Positions 1 through 11,460 of a stretch of 11,460 nt of DNA are shown piece by piece. The notes beneath the pieces were generated by a model. It did not search any database. It was not told the origin of the DNA and worked only from the letters and a program-made list of their open reading frames with translations. A program made the translations under genes and the position numbers. The number at the start of each line of letters is the position of its first letter. The first letter of the stretch is position 1. The DNA is taken from positions 1 to 11,460 of the forward strand of contig JAFCCW010000022.1 of NCBI GenBank assembly GCA_017609985.1, read 5' to 3'. The DNA is from Candidatus Iainarchaeum sp. GTDB taxonomy: Archaea; Iainarchaeota; Iainarchaeia; Iainarchaeales; JAFCCW01.

Positions 1-1008
1 AAGCTTTTCAAGAATGCTGTCCTTGAAGAAATATCCAACTCCTGCTAAAATAAGCAAGAGCAATACCAGTCCTCCGCCGACAATTGTTCCGTCGTCAAGT
101 CCGAACAATCCTGTTGTTGTTGAATTTGCTTCTGGTTCTATACAAACTCCGGTCTGACAAATTCCTGCTTCTCCACATTCTATTCCATCAAGCTGTCTGT
201 AGACACAGATTCCTTTGCTACATGCGTCTTCAGTGCAGGGATTTCCATCGTCACAGTCTATTCCAATGCACTTGTTAATTCCTGTGTTTGATGTTTCAGT
301 TTCAGAGCCGGAACTTCCTTCGCTCCCATTATCTGTTCCTTCTTCTCCTTCGCTTCCCTCTTCTGTCCCTGTACCGGAATTTCCTTCTTCTGTTCCATTA
401 CAAACTGAATCAACACAGGTTTCTCCTTCTTCGCAGTCCCCGTCCTCATAACAGTTTCCGCAGATGTTGCTAATGCAGTCTCCTGAGAGACAGCTTGCGT
501 CAGTATTGCATGATTCTCCTAATTCTTTTAGTGCTGGTGCAGAGCCGCCTCCGCCTCCTCCACCGCCGCCACCGGTGTTACCTCCACATGAACCACAGTC
601 AGCTGGGCAGGAAGAACAATCTTCGCCAGTATTGCATGTTCCATCACCGCAATAAGGTGCCTGTCCGATTGAAAGATCAAGCTGGGTATAACCGCCATTT
701 TCAAAACTTGCCTCTGCAATCTTGCTTCCGTTCAGGAAAAATTCAACTTTTTTTCCTGAATAAGTGCTGTTTGGGTCTTCCACAAGAAACAATGCCGGGG
801 CAAGTCCATAAGCTCCATTATCTGAAGAAGTGCTTTTTACTTCAATTCCATTAATCTTTGCAATAACTGCTGCTCCGTCAGCAGGGTTTCCGTTAACAGT
901 TACGTTTCCATAAAACTGGTGTGGGATTCCTGGAGCAGCAAAAGCAATTCCAATAAGCATTACTAAAAAAATTCCAGCAAGCAAAAATCTATTTTTTTCA
1001 CAAGTCAT
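1..1008 (-). CDS. Gene D: membrane-anchored Cys-rich surface (glyco)protein, 3'-truncated by the window edge (at least 336 aa)
   Basis: Hand translation from ATG at 1008 stays open to base 1; it is absent from the ORF track because no stop is reached. Order of parts: signal peptide [50 protein letters not shown] beta-rich domain; CGDGTCNTGEDCSSCPADCGSC; Gly10 linker; Cys-rich and E/G/S/T-rich stalk; CDDGNPCTEDAC (Dictyostelium CTDC-repeat-like); TTGLFG; TM helix IVGGGLVLLLLILAGVGYFF; KDSILEKL. SD-like GGAGGTTGA lies 4 nt upstream of the ATG. Several N-x-S/T sequons. Confidence 0.93.
   Translation of the reverse strand, partial: MTCEKNRFLLAGIFLVMLIGIAFAAPGIPHQFYGNVTVNGNPADGAAVIAKINGIEVKSTSSDNGAYGLAPALFLVEDPNSTYSGKKVEFFLNGSKIAEASFENGGYTQLDLSIGQAPYCGDGTCNTGEDCSSCPADCGSCGGNTGGGGGGGGGGSAPALKELGESCNTDASCLSGDCISNICGNCYEDGDCEEGETCVDSVCNGTEEGNSGTGTEEGSEGEEGTDNGSEGSSGSETETSNTGINKCIGIDCDDGNPCTEDACSKGICVYRQLDGIECGEAGICQTGVCIEPEANSTTTGLFGLDDGTIVGGGLVLLLLILAGVGYFFKDSILEKL
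544..573 (-). repeat. Poly-glycine (Gly10) linker in gene D
   Basis: Ten consecutive GGN codons with mixed third positions. Confidence 0.9.
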
Positions 1009-1012
1009 TTTT

Positions 1013-1021
1013 TCAACCTCC
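1013..1021 (-). promoter_or_regulatory. Shine-Dalgarno-like site of gene D
   Basis: GGAGGTTGA followed by AAAAATG. Confidence 0.7.
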
Positions 1022-1058
1022 GCAGTGATTACCTTATTACAATTAATAAATGAAAATC

Positions 1059-1066
1059 TATTTAAA
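1059..1066 (-). promoter_or_regulatory. Putative archaeal TATA box for gene D
   Basis: TTTAAATA on the minus strand, about 50 nt upstream of the ATG. The equivalent site before gene A (5879-5886) reads TTTAACTA. No clear BRE. Confidence 0.5.
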
Positions 1067-9393: not shown

Positions 9394-9417
9394 TTTCTAT
9401 TCCCCGTTGTTTGTTTC

Positions 9418-9470
9418 TTTCCTTTTCCAAAAAAAAAGAAAAAGGAAATGCGGTGGGTCCTAAGGACCCA
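9418..9470 (-). terminator. Putative terminator after gene C
   Basis: Minus strand shows the hairpin TGGGTCC-TTA-GGACCCA over the stop codon, then TTTCCTTTTTCTTTTTTTTT (T9 at 9429-9437). A second inverted repeat spans 9418-9426/9440-9448. Confidence 0.65.
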
Positions 9471-10419
9471 TCATTCCGCAAGTTGTAGTATAGTTGTAGA
9501 TTCCGTCCTGTGGCACTGACATCCAGTAACCTGTCCCTGGGAACATGTCGTCTCCTTCATTGAGCATCTCCCACTGGTTTGGATTGTTTGGTTCCCAGTA
9601 AGTGAACAGTGATGTGAACACTTTGTCCCATACATCCACTCCAAGTGAATAGAGTGAACAATAGGCTGGTTTTACATCCATTCCATAGTGTCCAATCAAG
9701 TTCCATCCTGATTTGATGTCCTTGCTTGGTGGAGTTGTAGCTGGACTAAACAAGCTTCCTCCGAGGAGTAGCGTGTCTTCCTCCAATGCTGCAAGCCAGT
9801 AACCCCAACCAGGCACAATCTCTTCGAGATTGCTTGTAGCTGGTGACCCTGGGTGGTATACATACCACTCGTCTGCTGCTGCATCGTATGTCCATACTGA
9901 ATCTACATTTTCTTCCACACTTTCGAAGACTTCTTCAGGGCTATCGTTCAAGAGAACGAAAGGCACTGAAATCAGGTTCCACTTCTTGTTGAGCTGTATT
10001 TCAAAGGTTGTTCCCTCGACTTTGAATTTTTCATCGTCTATGGGTCCCTTGTTTCCCAGTGCATCAACACAGTAGTATTTCAGGTTGTGCTCTGTCTCTT
10101 CCCCGAAGTAGAAGTCCTTTGTTGTGCTTTTAAGACAACAATAGCCGTCTTTGTTCACATTATAGTCTCCGTTGTATTGTTTGCAGTAATCAATGTCTCC
10201 TGCAGTAACATCTTCGCCATCCCACTCTACTTTAAAGCAGACATGGCTGTTATTCACTGGGTGGGGATCTGGATCTACACAATCCAATGTTATTGGAGTG
10301 AGCAAGGTTACTTTCCAGCAGTCTATTCCTCCGGATTCCCAACATTGTCCATTTACTTCTGGGTAAAAAATCCAGTTATAGTCGTCTGGATAGATTTTGT
10401 CGCTTGGATCTCCAACCAT
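9460..10419 (-). CDS. Gene C, 3' part: last Ig-like repeat plus WNLI/PG.GYW C-terminal domain (continuation of the 10353..11460 frame after a frameshift)
   Basis: The 319-aa ORF aligns along its length with the C-terminal ~320 aa of genes A and B ([55 protein letters not shown]). It has no signal peptide and its Met lies inside a repeat unit. Confidence 0.85.
   Translation of the reverse strand: MVGDPSDKIYPDDYNWIFYPEVNGQCWESGGIDCWKVTLLTPITLDCVDPDPHPVNNSHVCFKVEWDGEDVTAGDIDYCKQYNGDYNVNKDGYCCLKSTTKDFYFGEETEHNLKYYCVDALGNKGPIDDEKFKVEGTTFEIQLNKKWNLISVPFVLLNDSPEEVFESVEENVDSVWTYDAAADEWYVYHPGSPATSNLEEIVPGWGYWLAALEEDTLLLGGSLFSPATTPPSKDIKSGWNLIGHYGMDVKPAYCSLYSLGVDVWDKVFTSLFTYWEPNNPNQWEMLNEGDDMFPGTGYWMSVPQDGIYNYTTTCGMMGP
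10013..10101 (-). repeat. Near-identical block shared by genes A, B and C (copy in C)
   Basis: 1 mismatch to 1676-1764. The neighbouring 9958-9990 is identical (33 bp) to 1621-1653. Confidence 0.95.
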
Positions 10420-11460
10420 CTTGTTTGCGTAGGTCCTTCATTGTCCACATAAACACACTGCTTGTGCAGTGCTGTTTTTCCGACATTATCTACTGCTTCT
10501 ATTTCTATCAGGTGGCAGGAAGTTTTTCCAATAGTTACTGGTTCATGAATCACTGGAGCCCACTCACCGTCGCCAACTGCTTCTTCGTAGCAGAGTTCCT
10601 GGTCTTCACAGAATGCATCATCAACCAAGGTTATCCTGTAGTCAACTGTTGCTACCCCTGATGGGTGTGGATCTGGATCAAATGCACCCATCAATATGTT
10701 TGTTTCTGAATTTATCCATTCTGCGCCGCTTAGTATATTTGTTACTCCATTTATGTTTATATCATCTACGAAAGCGACTTTGTTCATCCATGCGCCTGAT
10801 CCTCCGATGACCAGTCTAATTACTTTAACTCTGTCTGTTGGTTCAACACGGCACTTTGCTGTAGACTGAATATCGCTCAAATAGTTCCATCCAAACTCTG
10901 CACAGAAACCATCTCCTGCGTTATTCGGTGTCCACCACTGTGAAATGCCTGTTGTATCTACTTCTTCCCAGCTCCCGGTACTTGGATTCATTCCATCCAT
11001 TGATATAAATGAATCGTCTCCCAAATCTGCTGGATTATGGCTGAAGTGCCATGGCTTGTCCTGGGCTTCATAAACACCGTCGCCGTCAGTGTCTATGCCT
11101 AATATTACGTTTACACCGTAGGTGTTGGATATTTTTTGCCAGAATGACAATTCTGTAATGTCCTCTAGTGCTATGTCTACTTCATACTCTACTGCAGCTA
11201 TATCGACTGCGCCGTTTGGAACATACAATCTAGCTGAATAAGGCGCACTATGATTCTCTATGTTAGACCATTCAGCTGTCCCGTTGCCTATGGTTTGGAA
11301 GGTTTCATTTACCGGGCTTCCAACATAAAACGGTCCTTCATATTCCTTTGTTATCTCAGGCGGTGTCTTGTCAACAAACACACATTGCCTGTTGATTTCT
11401 TCCTCGTTTCCGAGCTCGTCTATTCCATAGTACTCAATCACATGGCATGATTCTTCCATG
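10353..11460 (-). CDS. Gene C, upstream part (5'-truncated): Ig-like repeats with an inserted CBM-like jelly-roll domain
   Basis: Frame is open to the window edge. ESCHVIEYYGIDELGNEE..CVFVDKTPP and TSCHLIEIEAVDNVGK..CVYVDNEGP are homologous to [19 protein letters not shown] in gene A. The last ~25 codons (QTRWLEIQ...) are out-of-frame sequence. Confidence 0.85.
   Translation of the reverse strand, partial: MEESCHVIEYYGIDELGNEEEINRQCVFVDKTPPEITKEYEGPFYVGSPVNETFQTIGNGTAEWSNIENHSAPYSARLYVPNGAVDIAAVEYEVDIALEDITELSFWQKISNTYGVNVILGIDTDGDGVYEAQDKPWHFSHNPADLGDDSFISMDGMNPSTGSWEEVDTTGISQWWTPNNAGDGFCAEFGWNYLSDIQSTAKCRVEPTDRVKVIRLVIGGSGAWMNKVAFVDDININGVTNILSGAEWINSETNILMGAFDPDPHPSGVATVDYRITLVDDAFCEDQELCYEEAVGDGEWAPVIHEPVTIGKTSCHLIEIEAVDNVGKTALHKQCVYVDNEGPTQTRWLEIQATKSIQTTITGFFTQK

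Follow-up and report, generated by a model that had tools for sequence, protein, structure and literature searches.

The window, i.e., the whole 11,460-nt stretch of Candidatus Iainarchaeum DNA that was analyzed, carries its large ORFs on the minus strand throughout (Table 1). Gene C shows an apparent −1 frame break at about positions 10420–10437. Among the sequencing runs listed there was no RNA run, and 0.08 of the sampled words were found in one DNA run. Genes D and A begin alike: about 140 nt, covering the upstream region, the RBS and the signal peptide, are nearly identical between them, and the two signal peptides are 96% identical over 24 aa (BLASTP), in agreement with the common expression and export cassette described in a first-pass annotation of this DNA. 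The cassette may contain a promoter. By homology with D, translation of A likely starts at the ATG at 5829 rather than at the GTG at 5844.

Table 1. Genes and domains of the window (positions on the forward strand).
Feature	Position	Strand	Remarks
Gene D	1..1008	-	336 aa; 3′ end leaves the contig just past the TM helix
D C-terminal TM helix	10..108	-	residues 301-333; hydropathy scan
D stalk	109..654	-	Cys-rich repeats, Gly run, acidic low-complexity stretch, Dicty_CTDC-like Cys-rich unit
FYG domain (PGIPHQFYG)	655..936	-	94-aa beta-sandwich; proposed socket for the WNLI tail
D signal peptide	937..1008	-	24 aa; ...IAFA/APGIPHQ
D 5′ cassette	937..1083	-	copy of that of A
Gene A	1084..5844	-	1586 aa; secreted adhesin-like protein
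A WNLI twin domain	1087..1668	-	194 aa; proposed docking tail
A Ig-like pair (OmpL47-type-like)	1669..2427	-	precedes the tail; part of the common module
A 5′ cassette	5758..5900	-	TATA-like element, GGAGGT RBS, signal peptide; near-identical to 937-1083
Gene B	5899..9393	-	1164 aa
B WNLI twin domain	5902..6468	-
Gene C	9460..11459	-	two overlapping frames, 10353-11459 then 9460-10419; 5′ end leaves the contig
C WNLI twin domain	9475..10005	-

Adhesin-like proteins with a common tail and the membrane protein D

Proteins A, B, and C end in the same way, as the first-pass annotation had claimed: Ig-like repeats are followed by a twin WNLI...GYW domain (WNLI), and the ending T[TN]CG is present in all three. 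The C-terminal modules of B and C are 62–63% identical to that of A in the alignment, while BLASTP gave 57% identity for A/B over 494 aa and 59% for A/C over 316 aa. A fourth paralogue, E, is encoded on contig C36 and has the same C-terminal module. With the NF047446 model (OmpL47-type beta-barrel, cut-off 40 bits), E scored 82.2 bits, against 26.9 for A, 22.5 for B, and 17.6 and 29.8 for the two pieces of C. A membrane helix at the C-terminus is missing from A, B, and C, again as annotated, and also from E; in the hydropathy analysis hydrophobic segments were N-terminal only in A and B and were found in neither C piece. The signal peptide of A ends in AFAGC, which we take to be lipobox-like, so A may carry a lipid anchor of its own.

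The annotated difference in cargo among the three proteins was borne out only in part. Payloads do vary, but A and B have modules in common, namely module X (about 400 aa, 44% identity by BLASTP) and Laminin_G_3 (PF13385; 54.7 bits in A and 46.3 bits in B, both above the gathering cut-off of 27.6). Protein A consists of a signal peptide, DUF4114, module X (one full and one partial copy), TSP3, LamG, TSP3, the Ig-like pair, and the WNLI twin. In B a signal peptide is followed by LamG, module X, an Ig-like pair with a Cys-rich insert, and the WNLI twin, whereas C has Ig-like repeats, one domain without a family match, and the WNLI twin.

Protein D is a type I membrane protein: behind its signal peptide come the FYG domain, at the mature N-terminus, and a Cys/Gly/acidic stalk, and a TM helix lies at the C-terminal end. 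Orthologues of 288–390 aa with the same build occur at 10/10 relatives' loci, and also as P0001–P0009. In all ten the FYG domain begins at residue 22–27, and the C-terminus consists of a hydrophobic stretch with a tail containing Lys/Arg behind it. In the FYG-domain relatives P0012–P0016 a C-terminal dockerin replaces the TM helix; the only named member is from Paceibacterota. The stalk scored 25.1 bits against Pfam PF00526, under the cut-off of 27, and a query of genome contigs with the whole of D was dominated by matches to the Cys-rich repeats (Myxococcota, Planctomycetota, and similar groups).

Fold, distribution, and genetic coupling of the FYG and WNLI domains

Modeled alone, the FYG domain was predicted as a complete fold (AF2 pLDDT 94.5). 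Comparison with the PDB by Foldseek indicated a transthyretin/CarboxypepD_reg-like fold, with matches to 4v4c_B (E 2.5e-4, TMq 0.58), 3is1 (E 5.2e-4), and 1uwy_A (E 3.6e-3), and TMq values of 0.55–0.62 against transthyretin-like proteins. No Pfam or NCBIfam model matched the domain above cut-off; PF13620 matched only 2 of 25 FYG members (best E 0.032), not above cut-off. The WNLI twin domain of A was also modeled with high confidence (AF2 pLDDT 90.8, pTM 0.89). The copies of Pfam and NCBIfam searched hold no model for it (A, B, C, and 34 tail sequences), and no catalytic or ligand-binding family, which would have spoken against the annotated anchoring role, could be assigned from Pfam, NCBIfam, or sequence and structure comparison with the PDB. 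Against the PDB, the best Foldseek match of the tail had an E of 0.13 (TM ≤ 0.19), and of 48,161 chains a wide VIA-align search found none at Z ≥ 5 (highest Z 3.9), where the listed matches mostly cover residues 1–84 and barely cover the second half. The modeled tail thus appears to be without a known fold match, from which a new fold does not follow. The likeness of the tail to Kelch or beta-propeller proteins appears to be a local motif only: a tail profile matched designed Kelch proteins at 9e-11 over positions 31–77, yet no single stretch passes; Kelch_1 matched 2 of 34 tail members (E 0.049), and no propeller was among the structural matches.

At E ≤ 1e-3 the WNLI query matched 3,421 cluster representatives (50% identity). 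Among 150 representatives the tail lies within 25 aa of the C-terminus in 149, none has a C-terminal hydrophobic helix, and the payloads vary (precomputed Pfam annotation). Stand-alone twin-WNLI proteins of ~230 aa occur as well.

The two domains are coupled across genomes, as would be expected if the tail attaches to D as the first-pass annotation had proposed. Among 215 genomes of the own phylum, the FYG query matched 28 and the WNLI query 26, with both in 25 (related genomes are included in these and the following co-occurrence counts, which are therefore not independent observations). These 25 genomes are spread over 11 families with patchy presence. In 23 of them the ORF immediately upstream of FYG, on the same contig and strand, ends in WNLI. 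In one more (G070) the sequence just upstream of D is the end of a WNLI gene, within which the contig begins, and this raises the adjacent cases to 24/25, and in the other (G161) the FYG and WNLI genes are at contig ends. At 10/10 inspected loci D follows, by 46–220 bp, a WNLI gene encoding 1183–1861 aa; the other neighbors of the pair vary, and judged by eye there was no third conserved partner gene beside it at any of the ten.

Among 301 sampled genomes of a second DPANN phylum, WNLI was directly upstream in 12 of the 13 with FYG at E ≤ 1e-14, and where both domains were present they were adjacent in 17/20 genomes and fused in 1/20; 44 of the 64 WNLI-positive genomes had no FYG match at E ≤ 1e-5. 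In metagenome loci that were testable, i.e., with at least 700 bp of upstream sequence, a WNLI end was located no more than 700 bp upstream of FYG on the same strand in 52 of 59 and was absent from 7. Fusions, named in the first-pass annotation as possible Rosetta-stone support, do exist: at least 12 ORFs have an N-terminal FYG together with WNLI at E ≤ 2e-5 for each domain, comprising 11 from metagenomes and one on contig C38 of genome G336. Two metagenome proteins, L156 (989 aa) and L185 (781 aa), carry FYG N-terminally and end in a twin WNLI, and small FYG+WNLI proteins occur in tandem arrays. In G000, the genome encoding D, we counted four strong WNLI modules, one weak internal copy, and exactly one FYG, on D, and found no protein with both. 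The claim that the pair occurs in methanogens was dropped, since the sole Methanosarcinales-labelled genome (G219) groups in one order with genomes of the Woesearchaeota-centered sample.

Predicted complex and the proposed role of D

The N-terminal domain of D and the WNLI module were predicted to form a complex, and the controls passed. The ipSAE values were 0.80, 0.80, and 0.79, vs. 0.01 for the best of three controls. Of solved complexes, 116 of 157 reached the ipSAE mark used, as did 2 of 215 mismatched pairs, a calibration that is only roughly valid here because the score is the model's own confidence and was obtained from our own unpaired alignments. At least 97% of contacts agreed between runs, with a partner pLDDT of at least 92. 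In the predicted pose the two WNLI halves have between them a cleft lined by tryptophans, in which the N-terminal strand of D lies. The predicted interface comprises FYG residues 1–2, 4–5, 7, 9, 44–47, 49, 51, 53, 81, and 83, and on the tail of A includes W9, W38, W47, W70, W101, and W176. Of the predicted interface positions, 13/20 are identical in all four paralogues, vs. 60/174 elsewhere; the tryptophans could instead be conserved for folding or sugar binding. The PDB contains no like complex by sequence. Covariation over 53 pairs was weak and was set aside as support for the interface: 2 of 25 listed contacts ranked 28 and 95 of 17,296, and the 25 best-ranked pairs included 2 in the predicted interface vs. 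0.43 expected.

In the light of these data, the window probably encodes a two-part surface-display system, and it is rather likely that D is the shared membrane anchor of the interchangeable adhesins A, B, C, and E. These four proteins would leave the cell by Sec export without a membrane anchor of their own, and the two halves of each WNLI tail would form the tryptophan-lined cleft. D would be exported as well but remain in the membrane via the helix at its C-terminus, with the stalk presenting the FYG beta-sandwich at its end. The first strand of mature D (PGIPHQFYG) and a YGxxP loop would then dock into the WNLI cleft, so that one D species would anchor several interchangeable adhesins. We infer an anchor role for D, non-covalent binding, and attachment to a host or substrate as the purpose of the system. 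Of the two targets named for a docking tag in the first-pass annotation, D is favored over the S-layer.

The strict gene pairing and the predicted interface would fit equally well if D were a membrane-bound assembly factor, which holds the WNLI tail transiently during export and hands it on, like ElrE for WxL pilins. According to a preprint, it is a membrane-anchored protein that first engages the attachment domain at the C-terminus in the WxL pilus (10.64898/2026.10.17.759780). We consider such a role for D unlikely: it would leave the pair without the third conserved partner gene at all ten loci judged by eye, a long stalk with a distal domain appears better suited for display than for chaperoning at the membrane, and FYG alone is already predicted to be complete. 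A somewhat different reading makes D a separate co-expressed surface protein, with the WNLI tail binding S-layer, envelope, or host glycans in a CBM-like manner via its aromatic cleft. The conserved tryptophans of the WNLI surface, the stand-alone twin-WNLI proteins, and the much wider distribution of WNLI than of FYG in the second phylum speak in its favor, yet it would leave unexplained the strict WNLI-then-FYG order across phyla, the fusions, and the gap in complex score between the pair and its best control, and we hold it to be fairly improbable.

The proteins of the window might also be fibre subunits rather than single anchored adhesins, with FYG and WNLI joining them head to tail into a polymer. 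The architecture of L156 and L185 and the tandem arrays would suit such a fibre, but in G000 the two domains are carried by separate proteins and the only FYG is that of D, so that anchor and adhesin can pair there no further than 1:1; a polymer at this locus is very improbable. Beyond the shared-anchor role of D, the domains may tentatively be viewed, and we would rather doubt it, as a stud-and-socket joint of general use in archaeal envelopes and perhaps also in candidate-phyla-radiation bacteria. In this view the FYG strand at the mature N-terminus would plug into the WNLI tryptophan cleft, and the ends carried by each protein would set the structure: anchored single adhesins, adaptor chains, head-to-tail fibres (L156, L185, and the small tandem-array proteins), or dockerin-linked versions. 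If true, the joint would parallel donor-strand-type pilus assembly without being homologous to it, and a very large domain family that has no name would gain a function.

To our knowledge, most large, fast-evolving adhesin-like proteins of DPANN archaea have no recognisable anchor. WNLI is a widespread unnamed domain, for which the FYG domain of D is the first proposed binding partner, and a partner that is both genetically coupled and structurally predicted turns an unnamed, probably tethering tail into a specific hypothesis. If D is indeed the anchor, the cargo of the display system could be read directly from genomes, the presence of swappable adhesin genes beside a fixed anchor would be explained, and a small orthogonal docking pair would become available for surface-display engineering. 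In the open-access papers and bioRxiv preprints searched, PMC6393860 included, we found no description of the FYG/WNLI pair.

Comparison with known attachment systems

The PGF-CTERM/archaeosortase system is likewise a route for anchoring archaeal surface proteins, and three metagenome FYG proteins (L184, L186, and L188) end in a PGF-type tail with WNLI still upstream. D has a plain TM helix instead, without a PGF motif or NCBIfam match in a sequence whose extreme C-terminus is cut by the contig end; a TTGLFGL stretch precedes the helix by about 10 residues. The WNLI-tailed proteins differ from that system too, as they have no such signal. One Exosortase_EpsH match in the own genome is just above cut-off (30.3 bits) and one below; this lead was set aside, as no tie to D was established. 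As in T9SS of Bacteroidota, a conserved C-terminal beta domain (there Por_Secre_tail) is found on many unrelated exported proteins without a membrane helix. The T9SS-like sorting role considered in the first-pass annotation nevertheless found no support: PF18962 and TIGR04183 gave no match in the Pfam or NCBIfam search, and nothing in the window points to cleavage or covalent transfer. As far as we know, archaea have neither an outer membrane nor T9SS.

A functional parallel is offered by WxL pili (Csc; elrABCDE of Enterococcus faecalis), as described in the preprint cited above (10.64898/2026.10.17.759780). The likeness is functional only: the attachment module at the C-terminus is invariant, and the adhesin payload, most of it unannotated, varies. 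In both, a mature N-terminal strand of the partner engages the module (here by prediction), a membrane-anchored protein from the same locus takes part, and variants with both a donor and an acceptor end exist. The authors of the preprint confine the WxL system to Bacillota; ours is archaeal. No sequence relation between the two was detected: Pfam searches found no WxL family in A, B, and C (E ≤ 0.1) or in 34 tails (E ≤ 1). The system described here also has no sortase/LPxTG component and no DUF916/DUF3324 chaperone, for which Pfam gave no match in the window proteins. Moreover, FYG is predicted to be a complete sandwich instead of an incomplete fold with a free donor strand, and the membrane protein is proposed as the final anchor.

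In cohesin-dockerin systems, both cellulosomal and non-cellulosomal, a small C-terminal module of diverse secreted proteins docks non-covalently on a scaffold. Pfam detected neither dockerin (PF00404) nor cohesin in A–D or in the FYG and WNLI domain alignments, and where a dockerin is a Ca-binding helical pair, the tail is an all-beta twin domain of 194 aa. The proposed arrangement is nevertheless alike: a C-terminal tail would dock onto an anchored beta-sandwich module, with many cargoes per type of scaffold.

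Gene layout and the shared C-terminal module

Contig C14 (11,460 bases) fills the window and belongs to an archaeal genome of 1.16 Mb in 37 contigs, with a completeness of 86.6% and a match of 1398 bits to the archaeal SSU rRNA model. Named close relatives of the window proteins come from metagenome-assembled genomes of Micrarchaeota, Diapherotrites, Woesearchaeota, Aenigmarchaeota, Nanohalarchaeota, Nanoarchaeota and Altiarchaeota. Every large ORF of the window lies on the minus strand; these encode the adhesin-like proteins A, B and C and the membrane protein D, and a fourth paralogue, E, is found on another contig. 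The first-pass annotation had assigned a common C-terminal module to A, B and C. This was confirmed, the modules of B and C aligning to that of A at 62-63% identity (57% over 494 residues for A vs. B, 59% over 316 residues for A vs. C). The module opens with Ig-like repeats, of OmpL47 type by NCBIfam (E alone scores over the cut-off, with A, B and C under it). Behind them comes a twin domain of 194 residues, here called the tail, which carries the motifs WNLIS...GYW and WNLIG...GYW and has T[TN]CG at its end. The claim that A, B and C carry different cargo held only in part, since A and B have a middle module of about 400 residues in common (44% identity); Laminin_G_3 is present in both. The reported lack of a C-terminal transmembrane (TM) helix was borne out for A and B, in which the signal peptide is the sole hydrophobic segment. 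In A this peptide ends in AFAGC (window 5750-5770; residues 25-35 of the 1586-aa ORF), which fits a lipobox pattern. Judged from this sequence, A might be lipid-anchored at its N-terminus; a matching Cys is absent from B, D and relatives.

Strong tail modules number exactly four in the genome, alongside one weak internal copy and a single FYG domain, the latter being the N-terminal domain of D ('PGIPHQFYG'). A -1 frame break was detected in two of the four tail-bearing paralogues. In C it falls near 10420-10437, between Ig-like repeats, and in E (locus L002, contig C36) the signal peptide ORF (8964-9062) and the body, whose start is at 9071, are in different frames. Such breaks may reflect pseudogenes, on/off variation or errors in the assembly. 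The weak copy (contig C9, 5746-6243; E 8.6e-4) is a divergent internal GWNM...GYW twin domain in a 474-aa open frame, with PKD-like repeats before it and a long low-complexity stretch after it, and is not C-terminal; the copy is distantly related to the tail domain.

Positions and builds of genes in the window, of a small gene in related loci and of the fusion ORFs
Feature	Location	Position	Strand	Description
Gene C	window	10353-11459, then 9460-10419	minus	ORF in two frames
Gene B	window	5899-9393	minus	ORF
Gene A	window	1084-5844	minus	ORF
Gene D	window	1-1008	minus	ORF, runs off contig
Paralogue E	contig C36	end of contig		ORF, 1394 aa
LSPLQ(K/Q)(K/Q)I-motif gene	L084	2650-2964		
LSPLQ(K/Q)(K/Q)I-motif gene	L085	14919-15227		
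LSPLQ(K/Q)(K/Q)I-motif gene	L086	14077-14346		
LSPLQ(K/Q)(K/Q)I-motif gene	L087	4958-5260		
Fusion form 1				small FYG and one WNLI, ~185-230 residues
Fusion form 2				619-residue protein with further solute-binding-like part, read from sequence
Fusion form 3	L156; L185			989 aa; 781 aa; FYG at one end, twin tail at the other

Properties of the tail and of D

The tail gave no match in Pfam or NCBIfam. For 34 aligned tails the best Pfam hit was Kelch_1 in 2 members (E 0.049), and the tail profile touches designed Kelch proteins at positions 31-77, with no single stretch passing. AlphaFold2 modeled the domain confidently (pLDDT 90.8, pTM 0.89), and no clear structural neighbour was found with Foldseek (best E 0.13) or with VIA-align (best Z 3.9 among 48,161 chains). 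At thresholds of E<=1e-3, E<=1e-10 and E<=1e-30, a full-library search returned 3,421, 926 and 131 cluster representatives, respectively. Of the 150 best representatives, 149 have no more than 25 residues (median 4) between the end of the module and the C-terminus; the exception is a protein of 3,424 residues in which five copies lie internally. A C-terminal hydrophobic helix is absent from all 150. Payload domains on tail proteins vary and include DUF4215, PKD, VWA, LamG, Big and integrin-beta-like domains.

The membrane anchor previously ascribed to D was found as a C-terminal TM segment at residues 301-333, together with a signal peptide. Clear orthologues of D are built alike, from a signal peptide, FYG, a Cys/Gly stalk, a TM helix and a basic tail. 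Some 10 residues ahead of the TM segment, D (residues ~290-300; window 100-140) and its orthologues (P0001-P0007) have in common a T-G-(F/L)-F-G-(L/M) motif, which is reminiscent of PGF-CTERM-type signals, yet different from them. For Exosortase_EpsH, the genome gave one match just over the cut-off (contig C18, 30.3 bits) and one below. The FYG domain was modeled confidently (pLDDT 94.5) as a transthyretin/CarboxypepD_reg-like sandwich; its sequence relation to PF13620 is only marginal. In homologues P0012-P0016 (P0012 being a Paceibacterota bacterium protein) FYG directly follows the signal peptide and a type I dockerin forms the C-terminus in place of the TM helix, an arrangement in which the FYG socket may be mounted on a cohesin scaffold.

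Pairing and fusion of the two domains across genomes

Co-occurrence and adjacency of FYG and the tail, a check proposed in the first-pass annotation, were found in the window's own phylum, in a second DPANN phylum and on metagenome contigs; related genomes in these counts are not independent observations. Among 215 own-phylum genomes (E<=1e-5) FYG was present in 28, the tail in 26 and both in 25; the three genomes with FYG alone and the single one with the tail alone gave weak matches throughout. In 23 of the 25 genomes with both, FYG shares contig and strand with a tail-ending ORF and follows immediately downstream of it. In one genome (G070) the contig starts within the end of the tail gene, 47 bp ahead of D, and in another (G161) the two genes are at the ends of two contigs. 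The 25 genomes represent 11 families, with patchy presence (e.g., 3/9, 6/23, 1/38). In all 10 fully read loci a tail gene of 1183-1861 residues is followed by D after 46-220 bp, and no other conserved neighbour was seen there besides a small helix-turn-helix-like gene in 4/10. This gene sits just upstream of the giant tail gene, and its product (89-104 aa) has a conserved LSPLQ(K/Q)(K/Q)I motif and resembles a winged-helix regulator; the matching place in the window falls past the contig end.

The second-phylum sample (301 genomes around a Woesearchaeota record) had FYG in 36 genomes and the tail in 64, each tally including one unpublished genome (G462 and G463, neither among those with both domains). 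Both domains occurred in 20, of which 17 had them adjacent in the same order, 1 fused and 2 non-adjacent; with FYG at E<=1e-14, 12/13 genomes showed adjacency. Because many genomes here have one domain without the other (44/64 tail-positive genomes without an FYG match, 16/36 FYG-positive ones without a tail match), the coupling is strict only for the close subfamily. When metagenome contigs were scanned with the FYG alignment, 77 loci were obtained. At least 700 bp of upstream sequence was available in 59, and in 52 of these a same-strand tail domain ends within 700 bp upstream of FYG; three sequence pairs among them are duplicates. One Iainarchaeum-labelled genome (G217, contig C23, 14038-19279) carries two tandem tail-gene/D-gene pairs. 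Another genome (G219, 1.5 Mb) has 14 WNLI matches and a single FYG gene, which adjoins a twin tail. It is titled 'uncultured Methanosarcinales archaeon' and was grouped in one order with genomes of the Woesearchaeota-centred sample, so its label looks wrong.

Fusions, also anticipated, were detected in 11 metagenome-locus ORFs, in which FYG comes right behind the signal peptide and is followed later by one WNLI domain or two (both E<=2e-5), and in one 318-residue ORF of genome G336 with the same build. As FYG precedes WNLI in them, the reverse of the gene order, they are not read-through of adjacent genes.

Predicted complex, alternatives and known systems

Modeling of the D domain with the WNLI domain, another of the suggested checks, gave ipSAE values of 0.80, 0.80 and 0.79 vs. 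0.01 for the best of 3 controls (alignments of 34 rows for the tail and 25 for FYG). In calibration the mark was met by 116/157 solved complexes and 2/215 mismatched pairs, counts that are only rough here as our own alignments were used. At least 97% of contacts are shared between runs, with partner pLDDT of at least 92. The predicted interface involves mature residues 1-2, 4-5, 7 and 9 (APGIPHQFY) plus 44-47, 49, 51, 53, 81 and 83 of D, and W9, W38, W47 and W70 (first half) and W101 and W176 (second half) of the tail with neighbouring residues. No like complex was found in the PDB by sequence, and recall by the predictor is therefore unlikely. Interface positions are identical in the four paralogues at 13/20 sites vs. 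60/174 elsewhere; covariation over 53 natural tail/FYG pairs gave a weak hint only.

D is most likely an anchor that holds several interchangeable adhesin-like proteins by a tail clamp. A, B, C and E would be exported by Sec without an anchor of their own, and D would remain in the membrane, displaying FYG on a stalk of ~180 residues. The tail would then clamp the N-terminal strand of D and the loop next to it, and one D species could hold several such proteins. Architecture, gene order, co-occurrence and fusions were observed directly and the interface is a prediction; we infer an anchoring role for D and a role of the system in host attachment. The tail could instead bind a glycan or the S-layer, with D merely co-expressed, which we regard as unlikely. 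A and D share an expression cassette, as had been claimed: the signal peptide and ~70 nt before it are nearly identical, and a duplication of ~140 nt (D 937-1083 vs. A 5758-5900) comprises a GGAGGT RBS, a 24-aa signal peptide and an element resembling TTTAAATA. The duplication points to recent gene conversion and to A and D being expressed in a matched way; relatives lack it. It is also rather improbable that D, by analogy with ElrE of WxL pili, would act as a transient assembly factor. Least of all do we expect FYG and WNLI to be fibre connectors, a reading inapplicable in the window's genome, where no protein has both ends.

We found no description of the FYG/tail pair in open-access papers or bioRxiv. 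For the tail, the T9SS logic suggested earlier was not upheld, the T9SS C-terminal domain giving no Pfam or NCBIfam match. PGF-CTERM did not fit in these databases either. Cohesin-dockerin is an analogue too, with no family match in the window proteins or domain alignments. The nearest functional analogue is the WxL pilus of Enterococcus, to which no sequence relation was found. In its description (preprint 10.64898/2026.10.17.759780) the partner uses its mature N-terminal strand to engage an invariant C-terminal attachment module with variable payload, the locus encodes a membrane-anchored protein, and the authors consider the system confined to Bacillota. Modular docking display is a known kind of system; here it would be built from two uncatalogued domains.
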